64,000 nucleotides of DNA from an uncultured Alphaproteobacteria bacterium (GCA_934255405.1 CAKQNT010000001.1:34043-98042), one strand, 5' to 3'; positions 16,885-35,172 are shown, counted from the stretch's first letter. Program-made: numbers and translations. Notes: generated by a model not told the origin, from the letters alone.

Positions 16885-18456
16885 ATGCCGAAAACAGGTT
16901 TAAAAACTTTTGTTTACAGCTTTTCCGTATCTCTGTTTGCGATTTTTGCCGCTAACGGAGTATATTGGCATGAACACAAACGCCCCTCTCAAGAGCCTAA
17001 AATATCAGATAAAAACATTATGTTGTTTCTTAAATCAGAGCAGGCAAACCCCTCTAAAACTGCCGCTCCGGTAAAGAAAATTGCGCTAAATGTTTTGCCG
17101 GATCTTAAACCGGCACCCGATGATGATATAATCATGGCTGATATCGGGCTGGAAGAATCAGAACTACTGGAAATTCCGCTGGAAATTGAATTGCCACCAG
17201 CTAAGCCGGTGCGCAAAGCTCCGCAACCACCAATGATGTTGGCCGAAAACAAAGTTTCTGAGCCGCTTAAAATTGCAGAGCACCCCAAGTCCAAGGTTGA
17301 GGCTGTGGTGATACCACTGCAGGCTCCGGAGATTGCCGACATTAGCCAACCTGTCGCCGTCAAAGCGCCAGAAACCACAATCGAGCCAAAATCAGCTGCT
17401 CCCACATCGCAACCATTGCTGATGGCCGCAGCCGACGAGCCGATACCGTTGTTGCCGATTGAAAAAAGCTCCGACGAACTGGCGCAAAGCGTTACAAAAG
17501 TCAGAATCGGCTCAGTTGATGACTTGAATCAGGTGGCTTTGGCCGATAAGAGCATTCCAGTTCACAGTATGATAAAAGACAAGCCGGAGGAAAGCACGGC
17601 AGAAAGTGCAAAACCGCAGGCCAAGTGGCAAAGCATGGCTGATAAGACCGCGGCAGAATCCCCGTGGGTGGTAGCAAAGGCCGATGGCGCGCTCAAAAAC
17701 GGCAGGCTGGCAGATGAGGCTTATTATCAAAAAGAAAACGCTGAAATTCAAAGCGCCTTAAATCCGCAGCAACAGAGCGGCAATGAAGTTAAAATTGCTT
17801 CGGAAACAGTTAAAAATCTGCTTATTCCTATTCCGGAAGATATTTTGAATGATGAGAACTTAACTCCTCAACTTTCTTATTCGCCCCAAAACAAGCCTGA
17901 ACCTGAGGAAAAACAGCTGACGGAAGTTAAGCCGGCAGAGCTAAAACTTGACAGCGAGGAAAGTCGAAAAAACAAACTGCTTTCTTCGTTGAACTCGATA
18001 TTTTCCTCCTCTCCAAAGCCCAAAGAGACCAAGTCGGCGGCTGAAGCCCCCAATTTATTGTCGGAAATTCGCAAAAAGTTCCAAAAGCCAAGCGCCGTCG
18101 GAAAGATTATGCCAACCGAAATGCGCTTATCATTCCAGCCCAACCGCGCCGAAATATCCGGACAAACGCTACGCTGGATTCAGGCTTTTGCCGCACGAGC
18201 GGCCGACAACCAGAATATGACCATTGAAATCCGCATTGATGGCACCGCCGCAATGGATTTGCAGCAAAAGAGACTTAACCTGCTACACAACATTTTAACC
18301 GATAAAGGAGTTGAATACAGCAAAATAAACACGGTATTTACTCAAAGAGAGCCCAACTCTTTTATCATCAAAACAATTACTCACAACCCCATAGCCCAAA
18401 GAAGGAGCAATGAAAATATAAACAGAGCCGCAGACGGGTATTATCAGCAATGGTAA
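16885..18456 (+). CDS. Membrane-anchored proline-rich protein with degenerate OmpA/MotB-like C-terminal domain. First gene of type IVb pilus operon.
   Basis: N-terminal TM segment. C-terminal QQKRLNLLHNILTDKGVEYSKI resembles the OmpA_C motif N-x2-LS-x2-RA-x2-V-x3-L-x3-GV. Start set at MPKTGL (SD GAGGGG upstream). Confidence 0.45.
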   Translation: MPKTGLKTFVYSFSVSLFAIFAANGVYWHEHKRPSQEPKISDKNIMLFLKSEQANPSKTAAPVKKIALNVLPDLKPAPDDDIIMADIGLEESELLEIPLEIELPPAKPVRKAPQPPMMLAENKVSEPLKIAEHPKSKVEAVVIPLQAPEIADISQPVAVKAPETTIEPKSAAPTSQPLLMAAADEPIPLLPIEKSSDELAQSVTKVRIGSVDDLNQVALADKSIPVHSMIKDKPEESTAESAKPQAKWQSMADKTAAESPWVVAKADGALKNGRLADEAYYQKENAEIQSALNPQQQSGNEVKIASETVKNLLIPIPEDILNDENLTPQLSYSPQNKPEPEEKQLTEVKPAELKLDSEESRKNKLLSSLNSIFSSSPKPKETKSAAEAPNLLSEIRKKFQKPSAVGKIMPTEMRLSFQPNRAEISGQTLRWIQAFAARAADNQNMTIEIRIDGTAAMDLQQKRLNLLHNILTDKGVEYSKINTVFTQREPNSFIIKTITHNPIAQRRSNENINRAADGYYQQW

Positions 18457-18542
18457 TAAGTATAGCGCGGCGCTTGATTATTTAATTTTCAGTATGTATG
18501 ATAGGAAAAACAATGACAAAATCTAATCCGAGGATTGCAGAA

Positions 18543-19199
18543 ATGAACCAGAAAACATGGAAAAGCACATCTCTGATAGCGGCACTTTTGGTAGCCGGAT
18601 GCAGCACTCACGCAACAAGCAGCCCTTATGACGGCAATTCTCCTATACCTCAAGATATGGTATTAGAGCAGCCGGCTCCGGCGACAAATGTGACCACAGC
18701 CTCCGGCAAGGAGCTGATTAGCTATCGAGAAACCGCCGCGGACTACCGCGAATATGGCGAGCGTATGCCTACGGATCAGGATATTGTCAACTCCGGAGCC
18801 GGAAGCAATATGTCAGCCTCTATTCCGCCAACCATTGATGAGGAAGTTGCGGATTATGAAAACGAGGTAAATGCCGCCATTAATGAGGGCAGCAGCGATG
18901 ACAGCTCGGCGCAGTCTTCCGGCGAGGATCCGGTTGAAGACTGGCTGGCTGAGGAAGGCAGCACGCTTAAAGGGTTGTTGACAGACTGGAGCGAGCGCGC
19001 CGGCTGGAGATTGATTTGGAACAGCAACCGCAACTACACACTGGCTGCCGGCGCAATGTTCCGCGGCAGATTTGCCGATGTAAGCTCGGCTTTAATCAGA
19101 ACATTTGCCAGAGCCAGACCGGCTCCGGTTGCCACTTTTTATAAAGGAAACAGAGTCTTAGTTGTTGAGACCATGGAGGATGAGAATGCGTATGACTAA
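18543..19199 (+). CDS. PilL-like lipoprotein (TcpQ-like C-terminal domain) of type IVb pilus systems.
   Basis: Lipoprotein signal MNQKTWKSTSLIAALLVAGC. Conserved C-terminal LTDWSERAGWRLIWNS...TFYKGNRVLVV. Precedes the secretin gene as in R64/PAPI-1 pilL-pilN. Confidence 0.5.
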   Translation: MNQKTWKSTSLIAALLVAGCSTHATSSPYDGNSPIPQDMVLEQPAPATNVTTASGKELISYRETAADYREYGERMPTDQDIVNSGAGSNMSASIPPTIDEEVADYENEVNAAINEGSSDDSSAQSSGEDPVEDWLAEEGSTLKGLLTDWSERAGWRLIWNSNRNYTLAAGAMFRGRFADVSSALIRTFARARPAPVATFYKGNRVLVVETMEDENAYD

Positions 19200-20787
19200 T
19201 TGGAAAAAAATCGGACTTGGAATGCTTGTTGCGGCGTTCGCAGCCTCCTGCTCGATTTCCACAAATATGGATGCAACAATTGAGCGTGAGGTAGAAACTG
19301 CCACCCGCATGAAAGAAGAGGCCAAAGCGCCGACTGTTGTTGCCAATCAGGATTTGATTAAGGTAAAAGACGAGATTTGGCTTGGTGATTCAAGTGAAAT
19401 CGAATATGAAGGCGCCCCGATACCGGCTTATTTGGAAGGCAAGAACGGCATCACCTTGGTGAGCAACCGCCCGATTACCTTGTTTGAAATCGGCGATATG
19501 ATTAACAAAACCACCTCGCTGGGCGTGCGCTATGCTCCCCAGCTGGAAGCAGATGTAAAATCTAAAGGAGCTGCCAACAAACCTACTGTTGACAGCGTAA
19601 ACAGCGATTGGGCAGAACCGGATAAAATGCTGGTTTCTTATCAGGGTCCTTTGAGCGGATTGCTGAATGAAGTGTCTTCTCGTTTTGGAATCTGGTGGAA
19701 GTATGAGAACAAAGAGATTCACTTCTACAAGTTCGTTACCAGAACCTTTGTTGTATATAGCCTGCCAAGTAAACCGAATTTGTCGGTTAACGTCGGCGGC
19801 AGCCAGAGCGGAGGCGGCGGAAGTTCCTCCATCAGTATGAGCAGCTCGATTGAGGTTGAGATGTGGGGCAACTTTGAAAAAAGTATCTCTTCAATGATAA
19901 GCGATGGAGCAAAACTCACGATGTCGCCGGCTGACGGAACCATCACGCTGACCGCTACTCCGAACGATATTAAGAAAGTTGCAAAATACATTAACGAGCA
20001 AAATGTTCGTTTGTCTCGTCAGGTTGCCATCAGCGTAAAGATTTTGCAGGTTTCGATTACAGATACAGACGACTACGGACTTGATCTGAAAGCAACTTTT
20101 GGCGACGGCGTTACCAGTATCGGCGTCACAGGCTCTACCAGCGTAAGCTCTGCGGCCAGCGCCGGCAATACCATCACTTGGGGTATTCTGAAAGACAAAT
20201 GGACGGCCGACGCGGCGGTAAAAGCGCTTTCTCAGCGCAACAACACCAGTTTGGTTACCAGCGGCACGGTTACAACTTTGAACAACAAACCGGCACCAAT
20301 TCAGGTTACACAAAAGCAGAACTACATTGCAGAAATGACCAAGACCAACAGTGGAACCGACGGCACAAACTATGATATTTCGGTTACGACCGAAGAAGTT
20401 GAGACCGGATTCACACTTGATGTTTTGCCACGAATTTTGGAGCATGGTCGTCTGCTGGTTATGTTCAACATGACATTGTCTGACCTGTTGTCACTGGATA
20501 AAGTTGAGTTCGGCGCCTCCAGCGAGAACCAATATATTCAGAATCCGAAGATTGAATCTAGAGCATTTACCCAAGAAGTGGCTATGACCTCCGGAGAATC
20601 TTTAATTTTGACAGGTTATGAGCGCGTAAACAGCTCAACCACCAAGGAAGGCACCGGCTCAGCCGAAAACTCTTTGCTTGGCGGCTCAGCTAAAGCTCAA
20701 AAAGAACGCAGTGTTTTGGTTATTATCCTGACACCGATTGTATTGGAATCTCCGCTGTCACCGGAAGCCAGAATGTCAATGAATTAG
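19186..20787 (+). CDS. Secretin (PilN/BfpB-like lipoprotein secretin of type IVb pili).
   Basis: Lipoprotein-like signal GLGMLVAAFAASC. C-terminal secretin domain (LVTSGTVTTLNNKPAPIQV...VLVIILTPIV). Confidence 0.7.
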   Translation: MRMTNWKKIGLGMLVAAFAASCSISTNMDATIEREVETATRMKEEAKAPTVVANQDLIKVKDEIWLGDSSEIEYEGAPIPAYLEGKNGITLVSNRPITLFEIGDMINKTTSLGVRYAPQLEADVKSKGAANKPTVDSVNSDWAEPDKMLVSYQGPLSGLLNEVSSRFGIWWKYENKEIHFYKFVTRTFVVYSLPSKPNLSVNVGGSQSGGGGSSSISMSSSIEVEMWGNFEKSISSMISDGAKLTMSPADGTITLTATPNDIKKVAKYINEQNVRLSRQVAISVKILQVSITDTDDYGLDLKATFGDGVTSIGVTGSTSVSSAASAGNTITWGILKDKWTADAAVKALSQRNNTSLVTSGTVTTLNNKPAPIQVTQKQNYIAEMTKTNSGTDGTNYDISVTTEEVETGFTLDVLPRILEHGRLLVMFNMTLSDLLSLDKVEFGASSENQYIQNPKIESRAFTQEVAMTSGESLILTGYERVNSSTTKEGTGSAENSLLGGSAKAQKERSVLVIILTPIVLESPLSPEARMSMN

Positions 20788-20797
20788 GAGAACCACA

Positions 20798-22075
20798 GTG
20801 CTTGAAGAAGCCAAACTGTTAGATGATGATATAGACAACGGCTCAGCCAAAAAATCTTGGGGTTCATCCATTACCATTGATGGAGTGAGCTATGCCACAA
20901 GCCTGTTTTGGCAGCCGTTGCAAAATGCCAGCGACCCTTTTCAAGAAGTTGAAGAGGCGTCAGCCGGCGTTTTGGAAGGAGCCGACCTGTTTTGTATTAA
21001 GGGAGGCAAGGCTCCGCAGTTTGGTATCTGCGTTTCTCATGAGGGATATAAAAGCGGCGAAACGGTAGCCGCGGTTGCGTTGGCGACTTCGCTCTCCGAC
21101 ATCGGCTCGTTTATTGCGGTATTTAAGACCGCTGAGGGCTGGTGGTATACCTGTATTCGTAACGACATTATCTTGTCCGACGGCGATATGTTGTTCTTAA
21201 GCGAGGAAGAAGCCAAAGAACAGTTTTTATCTATGTTGGCTGTGCCGGATTGGGGCAAAAAAATTGCGCCCAAAGAATGGGAAATCGAAGACACGGAACA
21301 ACTCGATTTGGCCGAAGTTTTGGCTAGAGGCGCAAAATCAAAGCTGCAAAAAATTAAGGCTTTGCGCGGAGGCAAACTGTTTGCCGTGATTGCGGTTTCG
21401 GCTGTGGTCGGTTTGTGGTTGCTCTCCAGCCTAGTGGACACCCTGTTTTTGACACCGACCGTACGTCCGGTTGTTGTGCCAGTTAAACCGAAGGTAGTGC
21501 CCAAAGTAGAGCAAGTGGTAGAAGTTAAGCCGTGGGAAAAAGTGCCTAACCCCCAGCAGGTTATGAAAAACTGTTATCAGGGAATTGTGGCTCTGGATAA
21601 GATTTTGCCTCCAGGCTGGGCTATTGGAGCAATCAGTTGTAACAACGGCAGTGCCGCCACCTCATGGGTTCGTAATGTCGGGCGCGTGGCATGGGCAAAA
21701 AAAGCTTTGGATGATTCCGGACTAAAATTTTCGGGCTATAGTTTTTCTTCCAACGGCTCAAGTTTGTCGGCAACTTTGGCTCTGGACAAGGCGGAAGAGC
21801 AATTGAGCCCGCCGCAAAAACGCGCGATAGAGCTCCGTGACGAATTGAACGATACATTTCAGAGTATCGGCGTGCCTATTGCGTTGTCTACCGAAACAAC
21901 CAAATCGTCAACCGGCACGATTTATCAGATGATAAAATTTTCACTCAATTCCGAGTACAATCCTTTGACATGGCTGGATTTGTTAACAAAATATTCAGGA
22001 CTTGAGATTAAACTTATAACATATTCTCCAAACGACAAGATTTGGCATTACGAGGGGACAATCTATGTTTTGTAA
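20798..22075 (+). CDS. Bitopic inner-membrane pilus assembly protein (PilO2/BfpC-like by position). GTG start.
   Basis: Single central TM (LFAVIAVSAVVGLWLLSSLV). Position between secretin and PilP-like gene. AGGAG RBS 7 nt before GTG. Confidence 0.4.
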   Translation: MLEEAKLLDDDIDNGSAKKSWGSSITIDGVSYATSLFWQPLQNASDPFQEVEEASAGVLEGADLFCIKGGKAPQFGICVSHEGYKSGETVAAVALATSLSDIGSFIAVFKTAEGWWYTCIRNDIILSDGDMLFLSEEEAKEQFLSMLAVPDWGKKIAPKEWEIEDTEQLDLAEVLARGAKSKLQKIKALRGGKLFAVIAVSAVVGLWLLSSLVDTLFLTPTVRPVVVPVKPKVVPKVEQVVEVKPWEKVPNPQQVMKNCYQGIVALDKILPPGWAIGAISCNNGSAATSWVRNVGRVAWAKKALDDSGLKFSGYSFSSNGSSLSATLALDKAEEQLSPPQKRAIELRDELNDTFQSIGVPIALSTETTKSSTGTIYQMIKFSLNSEYNPLTWLDLLTKYSGLEIKLITYSPNDKIWHYEGTIYVL

Positions 22076-23384
22076 AATAAGAAATATTTTAAGCGTTTCC
22101 GCTTTGGCTTTGATGGTAACAGCAGGCAATAACAACCTGTATGCGCAAGGTGTTGTTACCCTCTCGGAAGATGCCATGTTTGATGATAATGACAGCGCGC
22201 CGTCTGCAAGCGTGCCGGATAATGCACCACTGTTTGGCTCTGACAATGCAGCTCCGACAGCGGCACCAAAAGTTGAGCCGAAGGCTGAACCGGCAGTTGA
22301 ACCTGTCGCCGCAGCCGAGGTTCCGTCACCGATTATGCCGGCGTCTATGCTCAACCAACCGGGGGCTGGCGTGGGAATTATAGGCACTAATGACAACGAA
22401 GAAATTGGTGATGAAGTCTTTTCTAAGATGTCTAATTTGGAAAAGCAAACGGCGTTGTTGAATCTTGAACTGCGCAGAGAGAAAGTTCAAAACGAAATTG
22501 AGGCTATCAAGAATCAGCGCAAACAGGCAATAATCCAAGAACAAGAAAAGGCCGAAGAGCAAAAGCGCAAAAAGATTGAATGGGAAAAAGAGCAAGAGCA
22601 AAAAGTTCTGCAAGAACAGCAGAAGTTGCGTGAGCTGGATATTAAATTTGAAACCGTGCGTCAGGAAAGACTGCTGAACTCTTACAAGAACGAGATGCTT
22701 ACGGCTAATCAGGAATGGATTGCTCATGAAGGCGGTCTCTATCAGCAGATTGAGGATCTGAAAAAAGAAAAACAGGCGTTGTTGGAAGATACGCAGAATA
22801 AGCTGAAAAACATTAAAGCCAGCTTTGCTAATGCTGCTACTCAGGCCGACGAAACCGTTAATGCTTATAAAAAAGAAATCGGAACCCTGAAAGAGCAGAT
22901 TAACACTCTAAACTCCAGAATTGAAGCACAAGAAAGAGAAATGGAAAGACGCAATCCGTTTGCCGATGGCGGAGTTGAGGACGGCGGTGCGGTTACGGCA
23001 TCACAAGCTGCTGATGCTATTGTTCCGGAGTTGAAACTGCAGAATATGTATGCGGTTATGGAAATTCGCGGACAAAATGGAGAGTTGATTGCCAAACTGA
23101 TTAATCAGGACGGCACACCTTTCTATGTTAAAAAAGGCACAGCACTGCAAAGCGGACATATCATCGATGACATCACCTCGACTTATGTTCGGGCAGAAAA
23201 GAACGGTATAAAAGATTATTTATACTTTGCGGCCGGCGGAATTTTGCCTCTGGAACAGCCGAAAACAACAATTACTCCTGATTTGCCGGCGGCAGAGACT
23301 GTCAAAAACACGGCTCCGGCCAAACAGGGTTTTGTAGCCAGCAACGGAATTCCGGGATTGGGACAATCAATGATGGCCAGATAA
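22065..23384 (+). CDS. Periplasmic PilP-like protein: signal peptide, coiled-coil region, C-terminal beta-rich domain.
   Basis: Signal peptide. C-terminal LKLQNMYAVMEIRGQNGELIAKLINQDGTPFYVKKGTALQSGHIIDDI resembles PilP/GspC HR-type secretin-interacting domains (inference). Confidence 0.4.
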   Translation: MFCKIRNILSVSALALMVTAGNNNLYAQGVVTLSEDAMFDDNDSAPSASVPDNAPLFGSDNAAPTAAPKVEPKAEPAVEPVAAAEVPSPIMPASMLNQPGAGVGIIGTNDNEEIGDEVFSKMSNLEKQTALLNLELRREKVQNEIEAIKNQRKQAIIQEQEKAEEQKRKKIEWEKEQEQKVLQEQQKLRELDIKFETVRQERLLNSYKNEMLTANQEWIAHEGGLYQQIEDLKKEKQALLEDTQNKLKNIKASFANAATQADETVNAYKKEIGTLKEQINTLNSRIEAQEREMERRNPFADGGVEDGGAVTASQAADAIVPELKLQNMYAVMEIRGQNGELIAKLINQDGTPFYVKKGTALQSGHIIDDITSTYVRAEKNGIKDYLYFAAGGILPLEQPKTTITPDLPAAETVKNTAPAKQGFVASNGIPGLGQSMMAR

Positions 23385-23387
23385 ACC

Positions 23388-25073
23388 ATGGCAGAAGCGG
23401 AAGAAGAGAAACAAAACGGTAATATCGAGCAGACGGCATCAGACACAACAGCTGGTGCCGCCGCTGAATCTTTGGCGTCAAGCAAAGCTGAAGGTGAAAA
23501 AAAATCTTCTATTGTCGAAACTTATTTCTCTAACGGCAACCGCCTGTTGACTTTGCAGGGATCTTCGCTGGTTATTAATGACGATACCAGACGTTTGTTG
23601 GCTCTGTTTTCAGACGGGCGTTTTCTGGTGGTTGAGAGCCACAAATTTGATGGCCGCGTCTTGAGCTTTGAGGTTTTGGCCAGAAAAAAACGCTTGGCTA
23701 TTCTGAAACCAACCTATGTTTCCCAAAATGAAATTAATGCCATATACAGTATCGGTGAGCGCGCTCAAGCTGAAGTTGACGTACGCGAGGATAGCGAACT
23801 TGACCAGCTGCAAATGCAGAAGGACTTTGTCAATGTGATTGCCCGCGCGGCAGCGCAAAAGGTTTCCGATGTGCACGTTATTGTGGCAGACAGCACCCAA
23901 ATTATGTTCCGTATTAACGGTATGATGACCACTGAGATGGAATATAACAAAGACTGGGGTGAATCTTTTGTCCGCGCGGCGTTTGCCTCAGCCGATGTAT
24001 CGGACTCCAACTATGCACAAAATGAGTTTCAGGGCGCACAAAAACTGGGCTCCACCCCTCTGCGCGGTTCTAAAGGTAAGTTGATGCTGCCGCACAATGT
24101 GTTGGCTATTCGTTTGCAGTTTAACCCGATTGCGTTTGGTTCGCAATATTTGGTTATGCGTCTGCTGTATGCCGATGACAACCCTGATGGCTCGGGCGAT
24201 TTGGCCAGTTTGGGATTTGGCGAGTTTGAAGAAAACTTGTTCTATCGTCTGCGCGCCGTTCCGGTGGGGCTGAATATTATTGCCGGACCGACCGGCTCCG
24301 GAAAATCTACAACACTGCAAAGAAATATGATTAAACTTTTGCAGGAGAAGAATTACGAAATTAACCTGATTACGGTGGAAGACCCGCCGGAGTATCCTAT
24401 TCCCGGTGCGCGCCAAATGCCGGTGACAAACGCCAACACCGAAGAAGAAAAAGATGAACAATTTACTAAAGCGCTGTCTGCGGCTTTGCGTTCTGACCCT
24501 GATGTTATGATGGTCGGCGAGGTGCGCTCACTATCAGCAGCGCAACTGACATTTAAGGGCGCGCTGTCCGGACACGGTGTTTGGACAACCCTGCACGCCA
24601 ACTCTGCACCGGCAATTTTGATGCGTCTGCGCGATATGGGTGTTGAGACATTTAAGCTGCTGGATCCGGAACTGATAAAAGGCCTGATTTCGCAGCGTTT
24701 GTTCCGCAAGCTCTGCCCGCATTGCCGGATTTCCGTAAAAGAGCGACTGAATGATCTTTCGGTACAGCGGCTTAAGGTTGCACTGGGCGATTTTGGGGTG
24801 GAAAATACTTATGTCCGCGGTCCGGGGTGCAAATATTGCGGCAATACAGGCATTAAAGGCCGAATGAGCGTGCCGGAGATAGTTTTGCCCGATGCAATGT
24901 TTTTGGAGCTGATGATTAAAGGCGAAACCCGCAAAGCGATTGATTATTGGACCAGCGACCTTAACGGCAGAACGCTTAAAGAAGCCGCAATTGAGCGCAT
25001 GCTCAAAGGATTGATTGATCTTGATGAAGTCGAGCGCTGGTGCGGATTGATGGATCAGCGACCGGTATACTAG
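23388..25073 (+). CDS. Type IV pilus assembly ATPase, GspE/PilB/TcpT family (PilQ-like of R64 system).
   Basis: Walker A GPTGSGKST, Asp box and His box (MMVGEVRS...GHGVWTTLHAN), tetracysteine motif CPHCR...CKYCGNTG. Confidence 0.85.
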   Translation: MAEAEEEKQNGNIEQTASDTTAGAAAESLASSKAEGEKKSSIVETYFSNGNRLLTLQGSSLVINDDTRRLLALFSDGRFLVVESHKFDGRVLSFEVLARKKRLAILKPTYVSQNEINAIYSIGERAQAEVDVREDSELDQLQMQKDFVNVIARAAAQKVSDVHVIVADSTQIMFRINGMMTTEMEYNKDWGESFVRAAFASADVSDSNYAQNEFQGAQKLGSTPLRGSKGKLMLPHNVLAIRLQFNPIAFGSQYLVMRLLYADDNPDGSGDLASLGFGEFEENLFYRLRAVPVGLNIIAGPTGSGKSTTLQRNMIKLLQEKNYEINLITVEDPPEYPIPGARQMPVTNANTEEEKDEQFTKALSAALRSDPDVMMVGEVRSLSAAQLTFKGALSGHGVWTTLHANSAPAILMRLRDMGVETFKLLDPELIKGLISQRLFRKLCPHCRISVKERLNDLSVQRLKVALGDFGVENTYVRGPGCKYCGNTGIKGRMSVPEIVLPDAMFLELMIKGETRKAIDYWTSDLNGRTLKEAAIERMLKGLIDLDEVERWCGLMDQRPVY

Positions 25074-25080
25074 GAGTAAG

Positions 25081-26217
25081 ATGATGGCAGAAGATAAGAT
25101 TAAAAGAAAACCCAAATCTTTGCAAAATGCGATGATAAAACTTAATGTCATCGAGGAATATTATGCCAAAATGATTATCATCTTCTCTAACAAGGTGCGA
25201 CTGAAAATGTATCGCAAAATTGCCTCGTTAATGAAGAACCGTTTCTCCCTGATGGACGCGTTGGATATGTTGCATGACGGCGCCAGCAACGGAGGCAAAA
25301 ACCCCGGCGAGCCGCTGGCAATTGCTATTGCCGCATGGGGCAAGGCCTTGAACAATGGTAAAACATTTTCTGATGCGCTTAAGGGCTGGGCGCCGGCACG
25401 AGAAAGGCTTATGCTTTCGGTTGGCGATGTGTCCGATTTGGAGAGCGCTCTTCTGAACCTGATTAAGGTTACCGAGGGTTCTACCAAGATGATACGTCCG
25501 ATTATCGGGGCGATTGCCTACCCGAGCTTTTTGATGATGATGTCTGTATTGATTATTTATGCCATCGGCGTTTATATGGTGCCACCAATGATTGATGCCG
25601 CGCCTAATGTAGTTTGGCATGGTATGGCGCGAGATTTGGTAAATTTATCCGACTGGATTAAAGACAATTGGCTGATAGCCTTTTTGTCCTTGCCGGTGAT
25701 AATGGCAGTAATATATTTTACAATCGGTATCTGGACTGGCAAAATCCGCGCCTATTTTGACTGCATTCCGCCATGGTCTTTGTATAAGGTATTTACCGGC
25801 ATCAGCTGGTTGCTGGCTTTGTCGGCGTTGGTAAAAGGCGGCACGCCGGTTTCTACGGCTATGCGCGCGTTGCGGAGAGATGCCAGCAGATATTTGCGCG
25901 AACGCATTGATAAGACACTGGTCTTTATTAATAACGGTGACAACCTCGGGCAAGCACTGGCCAAAACCGGACTTAATTTTCCGGATAAAGAAATTATTGG
26001 CGACCTTAAAATTTATTCTGAGTTGGATAACTTTGAAGAGGCTTTGGATAATCTGGCTAATGATTGGTTGGAAGAATCCGTATATATGATTGAAGAGAAA
26101 GCCGGAATCTTAAACATGGTTGCCCTATTGGCTATCGGCGGTGTTATTGCTTGGGCGGTTATGGGCACATTTGAAATGCAAGACCAAATTACCAGCGGCA
26201 TGGGAGGCGGAGCTTAA
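25081..26217 (+). CDS. GspF/PilC-family inner-membrane platform protein (PilR-like).
   Basis: 378 aa, three TM segments with GspF-like spacing. Follows the ATPase gene. Confidence 0.7.
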   Translation: MMAEDKIKRKPKSLQNAMIKLNVIEEYYAKMIIIFSNKVRLKMYRKIASLMKNRFSLMDALDMLHDGASNGGKNPGEPLAIAIAAWGKALNNGKTFSDALKGWAPARERLMLSVGDVSDLESALLNLIKVTEGSTKMIRPIIGAIAYPSFLMMMSVLIIYAIGVYMVPPMIDAAPNVVWHGMARDLVNLSDWIKDNWLIAFLSLPVIMAVIYFTIGIWTGKIRAYFDCIPPWSLYKVFTGISWLLALSALVKGGTPVSTAMRALRRDASRYLRERIDKTLVFINNGDNLGQALAKTGLNFPDKEIIGDLKIYSELDNFEEALDNLANDWLEESVYMIEEKAGILNMVALLAIGGVIAWAVMGTFEMQDQITSGMGGGA

Positions 26218-26218
26218 G

Positions 26219-26785
26219 ATGAAAATACAAAAGATTATCAAGTCTCTGAAACACTACAACCGAACAATTGCCGCAATAGCAACAATCTTGCTGGCAATAC
26301 TTGGGGTGTCGGTTTTTATCTTTAGCGAAGAAGACAACGGGATTAGCGCCGCCGCAGAAGAATTATCAGAGCTTTCCGGCAATATAAGGCACCATTATCA
26401 GGCGCGGCCAGATTATTGGGGACTGAACACGCAAACGGTGATTGATAAAAAGATTTATCCGGCGCAAATGCTGAAAAACGGCAAACTTGTCGGATTTATG
26501 GGCAATACTGTATTGGTTGGTTCCGGAATTGAAGGCACTATGCTGATGCCCGGAGCGCGCAATTTTGATGTTGTTTATAAGGGGCTAAGCTCTAAACAGT
26601 GTGTCGGGCTTGGCAGCCATAAATTTGAGCAAAAGTTTTGGCTGGGTGTCAGCGGCGTTTCTATCTTGAGTGATAATCAGGAAACCTTGTTTAACTGGGA
26701 TGATGAGAACAACCGCCTGCCGATTTCTAAAGCTCAAGCAAAGAAATCTTGCGGAAACAATAGCATTATAATCTGGCATTTCTAA
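26219..26785 (+). CDS. Small N-terminally membrane-anchored protein (188 aa) at end of pilus operon.
   Basis: ATG at 26219 right after the platform gene stop. N-terminal TM. No prepilin G-x4-E motif. Confidence 0.4.
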   Translation: MKIQKIIKSLKHYNRTIAAIATILLAILGVSVFIFSEEDNGISAAAEELSELSGNIRHHYQARPDYWGLNTQTVIDKKIYPAQMLKNGKLVGFMGNTVLVGSGIEGTMLMPGARNFDVVYKGLSSKQCVGLGSHKFEQKFWLGVSGVSILSDNQETLFNWDDENNRLPISKAQAKKSCGNNSIIIWHF

Positions 26786-26922
26786 GAATCGACGCAATCA
26801 ATTTTTGCCTTGAGATAAAGATGGATTGCTTCTCACGGCTAATCGCCGTTCGCGCAATGACATTAGAGAAGATGGCTATTGCAGCTCACTACGTTCGGGG
26901 CTCGGGATAGTGTACTTTTAAA

Positions 26923-26990
26923 AAAAACTGTCACCGCTCCGAGTGGCGAGCATTCTCGCCCGAGGTCAAGCGGTCTTCCGTGTTGATATA
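26923..26990. repeat. Left ~65-bp inverted repeat of GIY-YIG mini-element (contains internal palindrome GGCGAGCATTCTCGCC).
   Basis: Reverse complement matches 27421-27488 with about 4 mismatches. Confidence 0.7.
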
Positions 26991-27044
26991 CTACATTGGA
27001 AAAATAATATATATTGCGTTATTGCACAATGTTTATACACTTAT

Positions 27045-27341
27045 CTACAAGTCACCGCTCAGCTCAGGGTATAAGTCTTTCCATAACGGATTAAGCTGAT
27101 TTATTAATTTTATTTTAGTCTTGCTATAACATTTTTTCAGGTATTTTTCTCGCCTGATAGCTTGTTCTTCGCCATCTATTTTTTCAAAATACACCAGTTT
27201 AAATAATTCATATCGGCTGGAAAATCCAGAAAGTATTTTATTTTTATGCTCATAGACACGGCGAATTAAATCAGATGTAACACCGGTGTAAAACGTAGTG
27301 TTATTTTTATTGGTTAAAATATATACAAACATCTCTTTCAT
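27045..27341 (-). CDS. GIY-YIG nuclease domain protein (UPF0213/YhbQ-like, 98 aa).
   Basis: Motif FVYILTNKNNTTFYTGVTSDLIRRVYEH (GIY...YIG). Confidence 0.7.
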   Translation of the reverse strand: MKEMFVYILTNKNNTTFYTGVTSDLIRRVYEHKNKILSGFSSRYELFKLVYFEKIDGEEQAIRREKYLKKCYSKTKIKLINQLNPLWKDLYPELSGDL

Positions 27342-27420
27342 AATATCAGGTTAGTCTATAATCAGCGCTAAGACAAGAGAATTTTTTCTTAGAATAAAAT
27401 TAAAATTGCTCCTAAACATT

Positions 27421-27488
27421 ATTTTAACAGCACGGAAGATCGCTTGACCTCGGGCGAGAATGCTCGCCGCTCGGAGCGATGACAGTTT
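27421..27488. repeat. Right inverted repeat of GIY-YIG mini-element.
   Basis: See left repeat. Confidence 0.7.
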
Positions 27489-27539
27489 TTTTATTTTATA
27501 TGCAATAGTAAAGAGGCATAAAAAAGAGGATGGAGGCAT

Positions 27540-27577
27540 AAAAAAAGAGGAGAGCCACCACACTCTCCTCTTTTTTA
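27540..27577. terminator. Bidirectional rho-independent terminator (AGAGGAGAG/CTCTCCTCT hairpin flanked by A- and T-runs) downstream of pilin gene.
   Basis: Seen in sequence. Confidence 0.6.
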
Positions 27578-27592
27578 ATCTTATGATTAGGA

Positions 27593-28219
27593 CTAGTAGT
27601 AAGTCCACGTAATCGTACTACCACTATCCTTAGCGGTACATTCAGCAGCAGCTGCTGAAAGTGACAAAGGCAAGCTATCAATTGTGTGCGGTGTACCACC
27701 TTTATCTCCAATATCCTTATCGTCTTTACTCGGAGAAACCGCTATAGACTGCAAACCAGAACCGGCTTGAGAACCCCAGTCAGCAGTAGCTATAGCTACG
27801 CAAGCCTCCAACGGCAAACCTGAATAAGAAACCGTAAACTGACGACTGTCACCACCAGTTCCACCTTGTGTATCTACAGCAACTTCAACTCGTCCGGAAT
27901 AAGCGTTCACAATAGTAGTTGCACCACTACCAGCTCCGGCAGACGCAATACTTGACTGAAGCATATCTCTGGGAATAATACCCATCTGAACCGCAACTTT
28001 GTTACTCAAACCAGCGTAGTTTACGGCAGAAGAATAAAGTGTACGGATATTCATAACCAGCATAGAAATCTGGTCAAGCGTCTTATTAACACGATATTTT
28101 GACATTGCTTTAGAATAACCGGAGATACCACCTATCGAAAGCACCCCGATAATCGCGAGCACGCCGAGCATTTCGACCATCGAACGTCCTGACTGCTCAT
28201 TTTTATATAATATTGTCAT
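27593..28219 (-). CDS. Type IV (class b-like) prepilin. Leader MTILYKNEQSG, mature start RSMVEMLGVLAIIGVLS. C-terminal Cys pair (D-region).
   Basis: Gly followed by Glu at +5 and a 20-residue hydrophobic helix. Two Cys near the C-terminus. Adjacent to the T4bP assembly operon. Confidence 0.7.
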   Translation of the reverse strand: MTILYKNEQSGRSMVEMLGVLAIIGVLSIGGISGYSKAMSKYRVNKTLDQISMLVMNIRTLYSSAVNYAGLSNKVAVQMGIIPRDMLQSSIASAGAGSGATTIVNAYSGRVEVAVDTQGGTGGDSRQFTVSYSGLPLEACVAIATADWGSQAGSGLQSIAVSPSKDDKDIGDKGGTPHTIDSLPLSLSAAAAECTAKDSGSTITWTYY

Positions 28220-29942: not shown

Positions 29943-31394
29943 TTATGGAGCTAATTCAAGCAACATTTGCGGCATATTATTTATAGACACCAGAGCAATA
30001 ACTACACAAATCAAAGCATATACCTGCAACATATCGGTTAATCCCTTGTTTTTGAAGGGGGGAATCAGTTTCTGATATTTGTAGATAAGATGATGAACAC
30101 CAACCAGCCCCAATGTGGCTAAGATTGCCTGCATACCAAGACCAATATCGTGCAGAATCGCGGCAAAGGGCTGAAGAATCTTGAACATCATACCAAAAAA
30201 CAACATATATGTCCCGATAACCGCGATGGAAATGCGCTTGAGCTTAATATCCAAAGCCTGTTTAATGCTCTTGTCGTGCTCAACCTTTTCTTGCGACAAG
30301 TCCGCAACATCTATGCCGCGCACTTTTTCGGGAGTTTGCTTTTGCTTTTTGATATCGTGCATATCATGATAAAATTTGTCTTCCATAATGCACAAACCGC
30401 AGCCTTTGGCGGTGAAATACACGTGATTGGGATTGTTTTTGCACTGGCGCAGGTGGTGCATGAGCTTCCACAAATGCTCTTGCCACTCATAAGCACTGGG
30501 ACGGTTGCCGCCTTTGGCAAAGGCGCGTTCAAACATCTGCAACGTGTCTTTGTCGAAATAACTGTGAATGCTGTAAGGGTGAGGCGCCTGATATTTATCC
30601 GGCCAAAGTCCATAGGCATAGTGATATTGCTCTATGCGGTTTTGAATGGTGAGCATATCATCATCTGCTTTGTGCGGAACGCCCGAAAAAGGATGAATGC
30701 CATTGTTGAGAAGTTTGAAAATGATAACCGCCAGCGCAAATTTATCCTGCTCTTCTCCCATATCCTGACAAGCCAGTTTCATACCCTCGGGGTAAATATA
30801 TTCCTCACTGACAAATTCTGCCGGATAGCGCCCTTTTTCTCCTTTGATGGAGAATCCATCGCAGTCAACCATTGCCACCAACATATTGTTTTTGTATACA
30901 GAAACATTGGACGGCTTGAGGTCAACAATATAGTGTCCGCATTTATGCAAAGAGGTAACCATAGAGGCAACATTGTATGCGGCAAAAATCCGATAAGCGT
31001 ATTTTTCCGACAAGCCAAGCTTTTTGCGGATTGCTTTTTGCATAAGGTGGTCCAGCGATACCGCCGCATCCATATTTATTAACGGCATCAGATAGCCAAC
31101 GCAAAATCCTTGTCCGTCTTCCAGCAGTGCCTCCGGCCACGCAATTTGAGTATAAGACACTCCACCCTCTTCCACCGGCGGAAAATGCGGCTTGTTGAGC
31201 AGCATAGCCTCAAGTTTTTGGCGGTTGGTCTGGCTTTTGTTGGTGTTATGAAAAATCTTAGCCACAAGCTCGGGACGCCCTTCGACCTTATAAATCTTGC
31301 CAGAAGCGCCGCCGCGGTTTATCATCTCGCCCAGAGTGACTGTGCCAAAAGACCTATCGGCATAAACGGCATTATATGTAATCTCCGCTACCAT
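29943..31394 (-). CDS. Eukaryotic-like Ser/Thr protein kinase with C-terminal transmembrane helices.
   Basis: Gly-rich loop RGGASGKIY, VAKIF lysine, catalytic loop VDLKPSNV, DCDGF (DFG-like). Confidence 0.75.
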   Translation of the reverse strand: MVAEITYNAVYADRSFGTVTLGEMINRGGASGKIYKVEGRPELVAKIFHNTNKSQTNRQKLEAMLLNKPHFPPVEEGGVSYTQIAWPEALLEDGQGFCVGYLMPLINMDAAVSLDHLMQKAIRKKLGLSEKYAYRIFAAYNVASMVTSLHKCGHYIVDLKPSNVSVYKNNMLVAMVDCDGFSIKGEKGRYPAEFVSEEYIYPEGMKLACQDMGEEQDKFALAVIIFKLLNNGIHPFSGVPHKADDDMLTIQNRIEQYHYAYGLWPDKYQAPHPYSIHSYFDKDTLQMFERAFAKGGNRPSAYEWQEHLWKLMHHLRQCKNNPNHVYFTAKGCGLCIMEDKFYHDMHDIKKQKQTPEKVRGIDVADLSQEKVEHDKSIKQALDIKLKRISIAVIGTYMLFFGMMFKILQPFAAILHDIGLGMQAILATLGLVGVHHLIYKYQKLIPPFKNKGLTDMLQVYALICVVIALVSINNMPQMLLELAP

Positions 31395-31395
31395 T

Positions 31396-32139
31396 TCAGT
31401 TTACCTTTATCCATACCAGCGTTTTGTCATCTGAATTAATCCGTTGCGCTTTGGGCGTATTGAGCGTGTTGGCCAAAGCCTTTACCGCTTTGGGCTTGTT
31501 TTGCGCCTCTTCCAAAAACTTATCTATCGGTCTGATAAAGCCTTGCTCTATTCGCTGCCAATCCGCAGAAAAGGAAAAACACGCAACACCATCGCTCATC
31601 AAAAACAATGTGGAGGCGTTGTCAAACCACGTCAGACGCAGATTCTCAGACCACTCTTGCTGGGTATAAAAATAAGTTTCACACGAGAAATTGCCGTTTT
31701 CCGGACGAGAGGCAACAAAGTCTTCGTATCCGCTGCGTACGGCTATGGCCGCTCCGTCGCCGATATGAAAAAACATTCCCTTGCCGCCGCGACAAACCAC
31801 TCCGACAATTGTGGCGGCAAAATCTGTTATGCCGGATTCTGATTTGGCGGAATTTAGGCGGTGCAAAACCAGTTTTTCTCTTGAAAGAACAACCGCGCGG
31901 CGCACCACCTCCGGCCAATCGGGCATATTGGCATTTTTGAGCAAGTCACAAAGTGTGGAACATACAACTCTGGCGCCGATTTTTCCTAATCTGGCAGAGC
32001 CGGCTCCATCAGAAACCACCGCCACCAGATTCTTGCCGCGAGCGTGTCTGAAATGATCCTGACACGGCAGATTTCTGTGGTTGTGCAAAGCTCCGGTCAC
32101 ACTTGCCGCAACAATTTTCGGAGCGCTAGTCTTCTTCAT
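31396..32139 (-). CDS. PP2C-family Ser/Thr phosphatase.
   Basis: Motifs VSDGAGSARLG, HIGDGAA, LMSDGV. Start set at MKKTSAPK. Confidence 0.65.
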   Translation of the reverse strand: MKKTSAPKIVAASVTGALHNHRNLPCQDHFRHARGKNLVAVVSDGAGSARLGKIGARVVCSTLCDLLKNANMPDWPEVVRRAVVLSREKLVLHRLNSAKSESGITDFAATIVGVVCRGGKGMFFHIGDGAAIAVRSGYEDFVASRPENGNFSCETYFYTQQEWSENLRLTWFDNASTLFLMSDGVACFSFSADWQRIEQGFIRPIDKFLEEAQNKPKAVKALANTLNTPKAQRINSDDKTLVWIKVN

Positions 32140-32812
32140 CCCATTCTCCGGTATCTTCCAGCAAATCCGGAGCATTGGGAGCAGCCCTTGAAATACAGGA
32201 AACACTGCGGCTCAGCCACAGGAAAAACTCGGTAAACTTTAATCCGGTGAGGCGCTTGGGCGACATAGTCGAAAACTTTGCCAATTTTTCAAGATTGGCG
32301 CCCTGTGTTCCAACCGCGTGAATCACCACTTTTTTGTTCTCTTGAGCAATCCGGCATTTTTTGGCAATAGTCTCCCAGTCATAATCCGTCGGCTCGCCAT
32401 CGCTGATTAAGAATATCCACGGGCGTTTTGAGGTTATGCCGCAACTATCATAGAGGCATTTTTGCTCTTCTATCTTGCGCAGAGCCAGCTCCATGGCCTT
32501 GCCAAGCGGCGTAAGCCCTCCGGCTACCATGGTCGGAGCATCAAAATTCATGGCGTCTGTCCAATCTGAAGATATAACCGCCTCATCTTTGCCAAACGCC
32601 TTAATAATCAGCAACTGCACGCGCGAGCTGGCGTCTATGTCGTCTTTGAGTTCGCGCTCCAAAGCCTTGAGACCGGCATTCAGCTGTTTAATCGGCTCGC
32701 CACGCATGGAGCCGGAACAATCCAGCACCAAAACGCAGGGGGTGCGCTCATTGGCATTGTCCGCAAACTCTACATAAGGAATCATCTCATTTTCAATATC
32801 AGAATCTACCAT
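32126..32812 (-). CDS. von Willebrand factor A (vWA) domain protein.
   Basis: MIDAS DCSGSM...SDGEPTD. AAGGAG RBS before MVDSDIEN. ORF-track 5' extension rejected. Confidence 0.7.
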   Translation of the reverse strand: MVDSDIENEMIPYVEFADNANERTPCVLVLDCSGSMRGEPIKQLNAGLKALERELKDDIDASSRVQLLIIKAFGKDEAVISSDWTDAMNFDAPTMVAGGLTPLGKAMELALRKIEEQKCLYDSCGITSKRPWIFLISDGEPTDYDWETIAKKCRIAQENKKVVIHAVGTQGANLEKLAKFSTMSPKRLTGLKFTEFFLWLSRSVSCISRAAPNAPDLLEDTGEWDEED

Positions 32813-32826
32813 CGGAGGCTCCTTAG

Positions 32827-32949
32827 TCAGTTGCGAGGATAGGTGTGAGGATATCCACTGCCCGGAACAGGCTCGGGAGCAGCCAATTTGCCGCAGGAAA
32901 CCACACAAATTGTGCCCAGCAGCAGTAATAAACTCAAATATTTTTTCAT
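32827..32949 (-). CDS. Small lipoprotein (40 aa) MKKYLSLLLLLGTICVVSCGKLAAPEPVPGSGYPHTYPRN, heading the vWA-PP2C-kinase cassette.
   Basis: Found by manual translation (below ORF-track size cutoff). Signal peptide plus VVSC lipobox. Confidence 0.35.
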   Translation of the reverse strand: MKKYLSLLLLLGTICVVSCGKLAAPEPVPGSGYPHTYPRN

Positions 32950-33564: not shown

Positions 33565-33993
33565 ATGACCGAAAAAATCTATATCAACTGGAATGAATTT
33601 CACAGTGATGTCAAAGCATTGGCGCAACAGCTAGAAAAACGCGGGCAGTTCAATCGTATTGTTGCCGTGAGCCGCGGCGGTCTGATTCCGGCGGGTGTTT
33701 TGGCTTATGAACTGAATATCCGTAATTGTGAAGCGATAAATATCTCAAGCTATGACAACGAATCGAAGCGCGAGGATACGGCGATTGAAATCGGAACAGT
33801 TTTGCACCATGCCGATGAGCACACTCTGATTGTTGATGATTTGGCTGACAGCGGACGCACATTGCAGATTTTGCACAAACTATACCCAAGCGCAACGCTG
33901 GCTTGTGTTTATGTAAAACCTGAAGGACAAAAGTATTGCAATATATATGCTAAACAGCTGCCCAATCAATGGGTGGTATTCCCTTGGGATTAG
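33565..33993 (+). CDS. gpt: Xanthine-guanine phosphoribosyltransferase.
   Basis: Strong colinearity with Gpt (AVSRGGLIPAGVLAYELNIR, IVDDLADSGRT, C-terminal FPWD). Confidence 0.85.
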   Translation: MTEKIYINWNEFHSDVKALAQQLEKRGQFNRIVAVSRGGLIPAGVLAYELNIRNCEAINISSYDNESKREDTAIEIGTVLHHADEHTLIVDDLADSGRTLQILHKLYPSATLACVYVKPEGQKYCNIYAKQLPNQWVVFPWD

Positions 33994-34991
33994 GAAACAT
34001 CTACAAATAACGGTAATCCGCGAGCCATACGAGTCATTTGGGTTTCGATAGAAGTGCCCAAATTGGGGCGTCCGCTCTTGACAATTCCGCGCACCTGATC
34101 GCCTTTGGTGGTATCGGGGTTGGCGAATAAAAACGAAACCACGGCTTTTTTGATAGTTGTTCCAACCAAACTTTGGTGCAGAACTCCAAGCATACCGCGA
34201 GAAAACAAATCATAGGCCAAATCCTCGCTCATACCGCCGGCAGCGGCATATTTGACAACCGAAGTTATGGCATCTGTAACATTGTTGGCATGAATGGTTG
34301 AAAGAACCAAGTGTCCGGAAGTCGATGCGCGCAAAACTTCGCTGGCCGTATCAGGAGTGCGGATTTCTCCAACCATGATATAACGCGGTTTTGAGCGTAG
34401 TGCCGATTTCAGCGAAGCACCCCAATCTCCGCCCGCCGGCTGTGTCTGCTTGCAGAGCCCCAGCCCTCCGTTAGCGCACTTATAAACTCCATCCAGCGGT
34501 TGCTCATTGGGATCTTCAATGGTATAAGCGAATCCGCCTTCTCTAATCAGATATTCCTTAGTTAAACTGGAGATAGAGGTTGTTTTGCCGGAGCCGGTCG
34601 GACCACTCCACAAAATAAGTCCGGATGCATTTTTTAAGGCCAGCAAATAGCGCTCAAGCTGCTTTGGATAACCCAAAGAAGCAAACGCGGGGACTTCCGC
34701 CGGCATGCGGCGGGCGCAATACTGAATGCCATCCAGTGCAACCGTTCTTTCGACACGATAAAAGATATTATTGTAGACGATTGAATAGCTGGGGTTCTGA
34801 CCATCCCAAGAGCTTTCGACCAGAGCATAAAACTTATCAAAATCTTCCGGCGCAAACTGCATCAAGGCATTAGCAGTCTGTTTATTAGGGATAAACGCTT
34901 GTTTTTCCGGAGTAATATATATGTCGGAGAATTGTGTTTCGGTAATAGTTGTCATGGCCAACCTCGTTTGAAATTTTTGTGATATTGGCAT
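33990..34991 (-). CDS. PilT/VirB11-superfamily secretion ATPase, PilT-like by His-box (GHLVLSTIHAN).
   Basis: Walker A GPTGSGKTT, Asp box MVGEIRT, His box. 333 aa. Confidence 0.65.
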   Translation of the reverse strand: MPISQKFQTRLAMTTITETQFSDIYITPEKQAFIPNKQTANALMQFAPEDFDKFYALVESSWDGQNPSYSIVYNNIFYRVERTVALDGIQYCARRMPAEVPAFASLGYPKQLERYLLALKNASGLILWSGPTGSGKTTSISSLTKEYLIREGGFAYTIEDPNEQPLDGVYKCANGGLGLCKQTQPAGGDWGASLKSALRSKPRYIMVGEIRTPDTASEVLRASTSGHLVLSTIHANNVTDAITSVVKYAAAGGMSEDLAYDLFSRGMLGVLHQSLVGTTIKKAVVSFLFANPDTTKGDQVRGIVKSGRPNLGTSIETQMTRMARGLPLFVDVS

Positions 34992-35095
34992 TATAGCTTT
35001 TATGTATTAACAAAAAGCAAACCTATTGATTAATTGTGAAATAGTGTTCCGGTTAGCGCCATAAAATAAAGCTCTCACAAGGGGAGCCTTATTTT

Positions 35096-35172
35096 ATGGC
35101 GCCAGCGGCGGGACTTGAACCCACTACCCACAGTTTAGGAAACTGTTGCTCTATCCTGATGAGCTACGCCGG
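35096..35172 (-). tRNA. tRNA-Arg (anticodon CCT).
   Basis: Manual fold: acceptor GCCGGCG, D-arm GCTC/GAGC, anticodon stem ACAGT with loop TTCCTAA, T-arm GTGGG-TTCAAGT-CCCGC, CCA end encoded. Confidence 0.75.

Follow-up and report, generated by a model that had tools for sequence, protein, structure and literature searches.

Most of what is known of type IVb pili of the R64 class concerns accessories of conjugative plasmids or of integrative and conjugative elements (ICEs), or adhesins that pathogens carry on genomic islands. The clusters of the PAPI-1/ICE type have the gene order pilL-N-O-P-Q-R-S with no pilM between pilL and pilN, and the bundle-forming pilus (BFP) of enteropathogenic Escherichia coli (EPEC) has a PilT-like second ATPase, BfpF. 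Characterised members of the R64/PAPI-1 class stabilise mating pairs (PMC5297154, PMC9045228), and chromosomal R64-class pili that are not tied to conjugation are already known (PMC3984277). Here, a pilus locus at positions 16885–28219 of a 64,000-nucleotide stretch of DNA from an uncultured Alphaproteobacteria bacterium (GCA_934255405.1, CAKQNT010000001.1:34043-98042; the whole stretch is henceforth called the window) is compared with these systems. The region carries what looks like a full set of genes for a type IVb pilus of the R64/PAPI-1 (PilL–PilS) class, and the locus is distinct in composition and setting, though the class of machine is well known. It is likely to represent a chromosomal, lineage-wide pilus for adhesion or cell contact, which possibly serves an adjacent VirB-type type IV secretion system (T4SS).

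Independent gene calls were made on the 274-kb source scaffold, taken from the metagenome assembly in the ENA, and converted to window coordinates. Gene calls and a listing of open reading frames (ORFs) agreed on every gene that an initial annotation had placed between 16885 and 28219, and three genes missing from it were added, i.e., a pilin-like gene (26219–26785), a GIY-YIG nuclease gene (27045–27341), and a gene for a PilT-like ATPase (33990–34991). Proteins were compared by blastp with two reference pil clusters, the pil region of an IncI1 plasmid and that of a Thalassospira xiamenensis plasmid, the latter being the top annotated full-length match among the plasmids searched. Eight plus-strand genes (16885–26785) were regarded as a single compact operon because their junctions overlap or are spaced by 1–56 nt. 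The proposed R64/PAPI-1-class locus with the PAPI-1-like order L-N-O-P-Q-R-S was borne out by gene calls and homology, and the profile and homology comparison with R64-type Pil proteins and TcpQ likewise upheld the matches to the type IVb PilN secretin, TcpQ, PilQ, and PilR.

The first operon gene (16885–18456) encodes a 523-residue protein with an N-terminal membrane helix, a long linker rich in proline, alanine, and glutamate, and a C-terminal OmpA-fold domain; its earlier description as OmpA-like holds at fold level, and the product is a probable peptidoglycan anchor. The following gene (18513–19199) encodes a PilL-like lipoprotein of 228 residues (lipobox LVAGC), in which the C-terminal TcpQ domain was recognised by Pfam with 58.8 bits (cutoff 27); blastp matched it to the Thalassospira TcpQ protein at 1.6e-13 and to the C-terminus of IncI1 PilL at 1.2e-6. 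As is characteristic of the class, this PilL with its TcpQ domain is encoded just 5′ of the secretin gene (19186–20787), and the secretin is a PilN-family lipoprotein. This 533-residue protein carries the Pfam Secretin domain and scored 284.9 bits (E = 1e-84) on the NCBIfam model of type IVB PilN (TIGR02520, trusted cutoff 287.65), with other NCBIfam models following at 109 (MshL), 54 (SctC), 45.7 (GspD, cutoff 351), and 33.2 bits (type IVa PilQ). By blastp it reached 1e-68 against Thalassospira PilN and 5e-53 against IncI1 PilN, and its lipobox residues SCS, including the cysteine, were invariant among relatives.

The 425-residue bitopic protein encoded at 20798–22075 was assigned to the PilO2 family (PF06864). 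Its actin-like cytoplasmic domain is joined by a single membrane helix to a periplasmic domain, in agreement with the published definition of the family (PMC3984277), and the protein matched the annotated Thalassospira PilO2 across its full length at 1.7e-16. The single protein sequence stayed below the Pfam and NCBIfam models; a profile of its orthologues matched the N-domains of BfpC (3vhj, 5.6e-9) and of Burkholderia pseudomallei PilO2Bp (4byz, 5.5e-4), and was aligned by hhalign with the C-terminal half of IncI1 PilO at 96.9% probability. Between PilO and PilQ, as in the class, lies the gene for a PilP-like periplasmic protein (22065–23384, 439 residues), a connector in which a signal peptide and a long coiled coil precede a C-terminal beta domain of the secretin-binding GspC-HR/PilP fold. 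The PilQ and PilR pair of the class is also present. The PilQ-type assembly ATPase (23388–25073, 561 residues; T2SSE) has a CxxC...CxxC zinc motif and is of the type IVb, BfpD-like kind: its best relative of solved structure was BfpD (2e-96, 327 bits over the full length), with PilF at 175 and GspE at 159 bits, and blastp against IncI1 PilQ gave 1.9e-48. The platform protein of the PilR type (GspF/PilC family; 25084–26217, 377 residues) matched Pfam T2SSF in two stretches (80.4 bits) and IncI1 PilR at 5e-31.

Two genes encode pilin-type proteins. The last operon gene (26219–26785, 188 residues) specifies a pilin-like protein with a PilS/bundlin-type globular domain (Pfam Bundlin 31.2 bits, PilS 22.1 bits, both at or above the cutoffs) and a variable N-terminal membrane anchor. 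It has no prepilin signal: a G-x4-E motif at the anchor was found in none of 74 orthologues, in which the few motif matches fall within the globular domain. The gene is single-copy and lies directly 3′ of pilR in all related loci that reach it, and the IncI1 and Thalassospira pil clusters yielded no counterpart. The second gene (27593–28219, minus strand, 208 residues) encodes a prepilin that is probably the major pilin (Pfam PilS 63.2 bits, Bundlin 47.6 bits; blastp 5.5e-8 against IncI1 PilS). Its leader is short (about 11 residues, MTILYKNEQSG↓RSMVEMLGVLAIIGVL, cleavage marked by the arrow) and is followed by arginine at +1 within a canonical G↓xxxxE site; the N-terminus ...EQSG↓RSMVEMLGVLAIIGVLS, with RSMVEML as the mature start, was nearly invariant across more than 100 paralogues and orthologues. 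The long leader and G↓W site of PilS are absent from this prepilin, though its globular domain matches PilS. Tryptophan at +1 (G↓W) is present in IncI1 PilS, IncI1 PilV, and the pilin of Thalassospira, and the PilS leader comprises 23 residues. The initial annotation had described the prepilin gene as convergent to the operon, which is correct for the window; the arrangement is derived and was seen only in the contig of the window and in its closest relative (locus L003). In nearly all relatives the prepilin gene is on the plus strand directly 3′ of the pilin-like gene, with 0–4 tandem copies of the major type detected in place of PilV. Examples with three to four copies include the related loci L014, L016, L019, L024, L027, L047, L055, L061, L066, and L073; the first 30 residues are identical among tandem copies, and the C-terminal domains diverge. 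For 11 related loci, no prepilin gene was detected in the roughly 4 kb that follow the operon.

A hexameric ATPase of 333 residues encoded at 33990–34991 (minus strand) was assigned as PilT-like from NCBIfam models, solved relatives, and synteny. It scored best on PilT/ComGA models, with DotB and TraJ only somewhat lower (pilT_fam 105 bits, cutoff 319; TraJ 67; DotB 65; VirB11 45), its best solved relatives were PilT proteins (1e-20), and QVRGIVKS was noted by eye, unaligned, as a possible AIRNLIRE-like stretch. A homologue (38% identity over 167 residues) adjoins the pilus genes of the Thalassospira plasmid. Many relatives have the gene at the end of the pilus operon: in 30 of 71 loci it follows the final pilin gene within 1.5 kb and in the same orientation. 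In the window, an inversion has displaced it. An assignment as the VirB11 of the neighbouring T4SS was rejected because that locus has its own VirB11, which follows VirB10 in a relative at 70% identity; in relatives, the ATPase gene tracks the pilin genes.

Several parts of the R64 machine were sought and not found. No prepilin peptidase gene was detected in the window by tblastn with IncI1 PilU and the Thalassospira peptidase, by Pfam searches on most long ORFs, or by a scan for polytopic ORFs, as the initial annotation had said, nor did 80 related loci, taken together with their 10-kb flanks, yield one; the locus lacks the dedicated in-cluster peptidase (PilU). For IncI1 PilM, the lytic transglycosylase PilT, and PilV, tblastn against the window gave nothing significant, and the sole gene with an SLT domain (42925–43665) is 15 kb away from the pilus locus.

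With R64 (IncI1), the locus shares PilL as a TcpQ lipoprotein, PilN, PilO2, PilP, PilQ, PilR, and the PilS-type globular domain, the homology having been shown directly against the IncI1 plasmid; identities were 24–32% for most components and 38% over a 69-residue segment of the pilin. Unlike R64, it has no pilM between L and N, no PilT transglycosylase, no PilU, and no PilV with a shufflon, whereas the OmpA-fold first gene, the signal-less pilin-like gene, and the PilT-like ATPase are extras; it is chromosomal, and R64 resides on an I-type conjugative plasmid. Membership of the PilO2 family matches the pilL2–pilM2 clusters of PAPI-1 and ICEs, B. pseudomallei Tfp7, and the pil cluster of Salmonella SPI-7 (PMC3984277). 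Clusters of the PAPI-1, Tfp7, and SPI-7 types are located on genomic islands or ICEs, whereas the cluster described here is lineage-wide and vertically conserved. PAPI-1 carries PilT2, PilV2, and PilM2 together with a G-type T4SS; the window locus has none of these and neighbours a VirB-type T4SS. The altered parts list thus comprises a putative peptidoglycan anchor with an OmpA fold, a PilT-like ATPase, a signal-less pilin-like protein, and a type IVa-like pilin signal, all four being departures from both R64 and PAPI-1, as well as the lack of a linked peptidase.

The nearest annotated cluster, on a plasmid of T. xiamenensis M-5 (NZ_CP004389), is also alphaproteobacterial. Its PilN is 31% identical over 98% of the length, its gene order (TcpQ-PilN-PilO2-x-ATPase-GspF-pilin) is the same as in the window, and it has the homologue of the extra PilT-like ATPase. 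It differs in being plasmid-borne beside DotD/TraH and TraJ-like I-type genes, in encoding a prepilin peptidase within the cluster, and in the G↓W site of its pilin. Likeness to the EPEC BFP is seen in the ATPase, for which BfpD is closest among solved structures, in the match of the PilO2 N-domain profile to BfpC, and in the Bundlin matches of the pilins. Components of the PilN, PilO2, and PilP types are, however, encoded instead of BfpB, BfpG, and BfpU, which marks the locus as an R64 variant, and the BFP cluster has its own peptidase, BfpP, whereas no peptidase is linked to the window locus.

The distribution of the locus was assessed with the secretin, for which 817 relatives were found at E ≤ 1e-5. 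The top 120 were 64–99% identical and came from assemblies of uncultured organisms, the few named ones all being labelled “MAG: Alphaproteobacteria bacterium” (MAG, metagenome-assembled genome). In a scan of one genome per GTDB species, at least 291 genomes had a relative, all of them gut, rumen, or faecal Alphaproteobacteria MAGs. Record labels of the relatives were “uncultured Alphaproteobacteria,” “Azospirillum sp.” (UMGS63), “Proteobacteria bacterium CAG:495,” and “Candidatus Scatocola,” the last being placed by NCBI in Rhodospirillales, Rhodospirillaceae incertae sedis; the lineage is probably GTDB order RF32. The order from the 523-residue first gene (p523) through L-N-O-P-Q-R to the pilin-like gene was kept in all of the 80 related loci that extend far enough. 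Pilus and T4SS loci were conserved at 60–91% identity (best segment; one truncated locus at 97%), and pilus, T4SS, and flanking genes diverged in parallel across species, which fits vertical inheritance. The right flank carries dapE, gpmA, murI, dinB, yidC, rpsA, cmk, dnaJ, and dnaK, and G+C is uniform across the window (0.42–0.49).

Mobility genes were sought across about 86 kb, comprising the window, 7 kb further left on the contig, and about 15 kb beyond in the relative at 70% identity; no relaxase, VirD4-type coupling protein, integrase, or replication gene was seen. Carriage on a plasmid or ICE together with an I- or G-type T4SS was not observed; the context is one of housekeeping genes, and the neighbouring T4SS is VirB-type (VirB2, a putative VirB3, VirB4, VirB8, VirB9, VirB10, and VirB11). 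An ICE was considered since a tRNA-Arg gene (35097–35173) adjoins the PilT-like ATPase gene, and was rejected: no tRNA lies there or elsewhere beside the pilus locus in 15 related or extended loci, and no integrase was seen. Judged by this genomic context, the pilus operon is chromosomal and a fixed trait of the lineage, and does not appear to be on a mobile element. An R64-class machine with an altered parts list is here a conserved core feature in hundreds of uncultured gut Alphaproteobacteria species, and the locus offers a testable handle on attachment and cell interaction in an abundant uncultured gut lineage. It would also exemplify the domestication of a pilus from mobile elements. No literature on pili or T4SS of RF32/CAG-239-type gut Alphaproteobacteria was found, nor any description of a VirB-type T4SS that has an R64-class pilus as its partner; I-type and G-type systems are the partners known. 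The “pilus plus T4SS” plasmid pYR4 of Yersinia ruckeri was considered as a VirB-type pairing and rejected, as its tra system is pCTX-M3-like, which we take to be I-type.

The VirB-type T4SS stands back-to-back with the pilus operon, as had been stated: the first virB2-like pilin gene (16239–16577, minus strand, 112 residues; TrbC/VirB2 37.8 bits) is divergent from it across a spacer of 307 bp (16578–16884), or about 274 bp if an upstream TTG at 16852 is taken as the start. The notion of one shared control region of 270 bp was not sustained. In an alignment of 44 orthologous spacers, blocks conserved at 90% or more corresponded to the motifs M3 (16678–16695) and M1 (16709–16729), which belong to virB2, and to the 33-nt motif M2 (16833–16865), which belongs to the pilus operon and is located at −52 of its first gene. 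The sequences GTTAACATAcTGTTTACA and GCTGTAACAAAAAATTCACAG move with virB2, and TCTTGCCAAGAGTCGCATTTTGATTTATCAAGG moves with the pilus operon: M2 kept its offset in all arrangements, also where no virB2 is nearby, and M1 and M3 remained about 130 bp 5′ of virB2 wherever the latter lies. Because M2 and M1/M3 separate cleanly in rearranged genomes, the spacer was interpreted as two juxtaposed upstream regions, i.e., two separable modules, each of which keeps to its operon in genomes where the loci lie apart. Two palindromes occur in M2, CTCTTG-C-CAAGAG and TTGAT-TT-ATCAA, as does, as read by eye, a TTGCCA-N17-TATCAA arrangement. The spacer had no Rfam match, no further copies of its motifs were present in the window, and a regulon search was negative. 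The pilus and T4SS loci are accordingly predicted to be transcribed as separate units with conserved upstream elements of their own; co-regulation is possible, though not implied by the architecture, and the independent, strongly conserved elements are defined targets for regulation studies.

Adjacency of the two loci was common and not universal. In 50 of 80 loci virB2 is divergent from and adjacent to the pilus operon, and in three the T4SS lies 3′ of the pilin genes on the same strand, an alternative arrangement as from a single inversion. Housekeeping genes (5–8 kb; ROK kinase, aroK, xerD, and others) separate the loci in 13 cases, no virB2 was within reach in at least six, and adjacency was broken or rearranged in about 22 of the 80 loci altogether.

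Homology and fold support a standard type IVb machine. The lipoprotein secretin PilN and the TcpQ lipoprotein PilL are predicted to form the outer-membrane channel, PilR and the bitopic PilO2 the inner-membrane platform, and PilP the periplasmic connector, and the OmpA-fold inner-membrane protein may tie the machine to the peptidoglycan. The prepilin would be cleaved by an unlinked peptidase and polymerised by PilQ through the PilN channel, the signal-less pilin-like protein may be a membrane-retained base or priming component, and the PilT-like ATPase would make the pilus retractile. Most likely the pilus serves to attach the bacterium to other cells or to host surfaces; its retraction may bring the envelope into contact, letting the usually adjacent, embellished VirB-type T4SS act. 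Given the chromosomal, lineage-wide occurrence of the locus and the negative search for DNA-transfer genes, adhesion or cell contact was favoured over mating-pair stabilisation, and this role, with possible service to the T4SS, is considered probable from the genomic data.

Several observations weigh against it. The secretin remained 2.75 bits below the trusted cutoff of the PilN model, and PilO and PilP were recognised only through profile or fold methods. With no linked peptidase in the window or in the 80 loci, maturation of the pilin is unproven. The PilT-like ATPase gene of the window is 6 kb off and on the opposite strand, no copy was present within about 4.4 kb downstream in 27 loci, and it is family resemblance and synteny that suggest its role in retraction. 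Cooperation with the T4SS was deduced from linkage, which is interrupted in 13 species and absent within reach in at least six, and a functional link between pilus and T4SS is plausible but unproven.

Alternatively, the pilus may act on its own in colonisation or adhesion, in the manner of the pil cluster of Salmonella Typhi SPI-7, B. pseudomallei Tfp7, BFP, or the toxin-coregulated pilus (TCP), and its adjacency to the T4SS would be historical. This reading agrees with the conserved elements upstream of the two operons, each of which moves with its own operon, with pilus operons that are intact where virB2 is 5–8 kb away or not within 10 kb, with the precedent of chromosomal R64-class pili outside conjugation (PMC3984277), and with the 0–4 tandem pilin copies detected, as expected for a surface adhesin under diversifying pressure. 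At least 53 of the 80 species, however, retain the adjacency, in two arrangements and at identities down to about 60%, which exceeds what drift alone would readily preserve. The alternative departs from the favoured adhesion or contact pilus only by denying cooperation with the T4SS, and we regard it as a serious but lesser possibility.

More speculatively, pilus and T4SS might constitute a domesticated pair derived from conjugation, in which a retractile R64-class pilus and an embellished VirB-type T4SS form one contact-dependent apparatus fixed in the chromosome of a small-genome gut lineage. The pilus would catch and reel in a target cell (host, protist, or another bacterium), upon which the T4SS would act; in the latter, giant coiled-coil proteins include fused VirB2 domains, VirB10 carries lectin-like beta-flower repeats, and no coupling protein was seen in the stretch examined. 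This scenario, drawn from the linkage of the two loci, is put forward tentatively and is rather doubtful as a whole. If true, it would point to an attached, epibiotic, or host-cell-interacting lifestyle of an abundant, unstudied gut lineage.

Transfer of a plasmid or ICE, the function known from R64 and PAPI-1, is less likely. The initial annotation had suggested, by analogy, that the thin pilus stabilises mating pairs, which would imply a conjugative element whose DNA is transferred by the adjacent VirB-type T4SS. The machine does fall in a class whose characterised members have this function (PMC5297154, PMC9045228), its nearest annotated relative is on a plasmid beside I-type transfer genes, and the T4SS is adjacent in most genomes. 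Against this stand chromosomal loci in at least 291 species-level genomes, housekeeping surroundings of equal G+C, the parallel divergence of pilus, T4SS, and flanks that fits vertical inheritance, and the lack of a PilV adhesin or shufflon; neither relaxase, VirD4-type coupling protein, integrase, replication gene, nor an att-like tRNA context was seen in the roughly 86 kb. The suggestion was not upheld, and a mating-pair function is improbable here. A type II secretion system (T2SS; GspD/E/F with pseudopilins) instead of a pilus is extremely improbable and was refuted in favour of type IVb when best matches to GspD and GspE and nearby pseudopilins were looked for: the ATPase scored marginally higher on NCBIfam GspE (215.7 bits) than on PilB (206.3) and the platform protein matched GspF models, but the ATPase and platform scores were far under the family cutoffs (630 for GspE), the secretin reached 284.9 bits on type IVb PilN vs 45.7 on GspD (cutoff 351), the ATPase reached 327 bits with BfpD vs 159 with GspE among solved relatives, PilO2 and TcpQ-domain proteins are type IVb-specific, and the pilins matched PilS/bundlin and not GspG–K, with no GspC, GspL, or GspM family matches appearing.

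The neighbouring T4SS extends to the left of the pilus operon. It begins with three VirB2-domain proteins, followed by a putative VirB3 and VirB4, and six proteins without T4SS family matches, several of them large and some coiled-coil, are encoded between VirB4 and VirB8; two VirB8 genes lie past the window edge. In the relative at 70% identity, the locus continues with a VirB9 with a SPOR domain, a 1138-residue beta-flower/RHS-repeat protein, a giant VirB10 of 1570 residues with beta-flower repeats, and VirB11, after which unrelated genes follow, none of them a VirD4 gene. The embellished stretches correspond to 1–11024 of the window (minus strand), L086, and 8291–18997 of L090. Three consecutive VirB2-domain genes are unusual: beyond the ordinary 112-residue VirB2, VirB2/TrbC-like hydrophobic segments were observed within larger proteins, namely a coiled-coil protein of 1257 residues rich in lysine, glutamate, and alanine (11537–15310, minus strand) and a protein of 211 residues (15367–16002, minus strand).

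Between the two pilin genes lies a GIY-YIG cassette (26921–27492, minus strand), in which a gene for a 98-residue nuclease (27045–27341, minus strand; Pfam GIY-YIG 58 bits) is bracketed by 73-nt inverted repeats (26921–26993 and 27420–27492; 90% complementary). The cassette is at a rearrangement junction and outside the pilus machine. In relatives the gene order is ATPase, phosphoribosyltransferase (PRTase), AhpC-like, vWA, PP2C, and kinase, with respect to which the window and its closest relative carry two adjacent inversions; the convergent prepilin orientation is a local rearrangement derived from inversions beside the cassette. The repeat occurs four times in L003 (7246, 17899, 18392, and 19896), including the flanks of its inverted pilin gene, and the cassette looks like a small mobile or recombinogenic element behind the local inversions. 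The L003 repeats sit at the edges of rearranged segments and within the virB2–pilus spacer of that locus.

Three genes at 29943–32908 (minus strand), for a vWA protein, a phosphatase of the PP2C type, and a Ser/Thr kinase, form a module that relatives likewise keep beside their pilus operon. Similar vWA-PP2C-kinase triads have been described, and the module may have a regulatory role. The tRNA-Arg gene (35097–35173, minus strand) lies beside the displaced PilT-like ATPase gene, and an inverted repeat at 35056–35102 (19 nt, 95% complementary, 9-nt loop) overlaps the 3′ end of the tRNA with its right arm. The rest of the repeat is located in the spacer towards the ATPase gene, and the repeat is probably a terminator.

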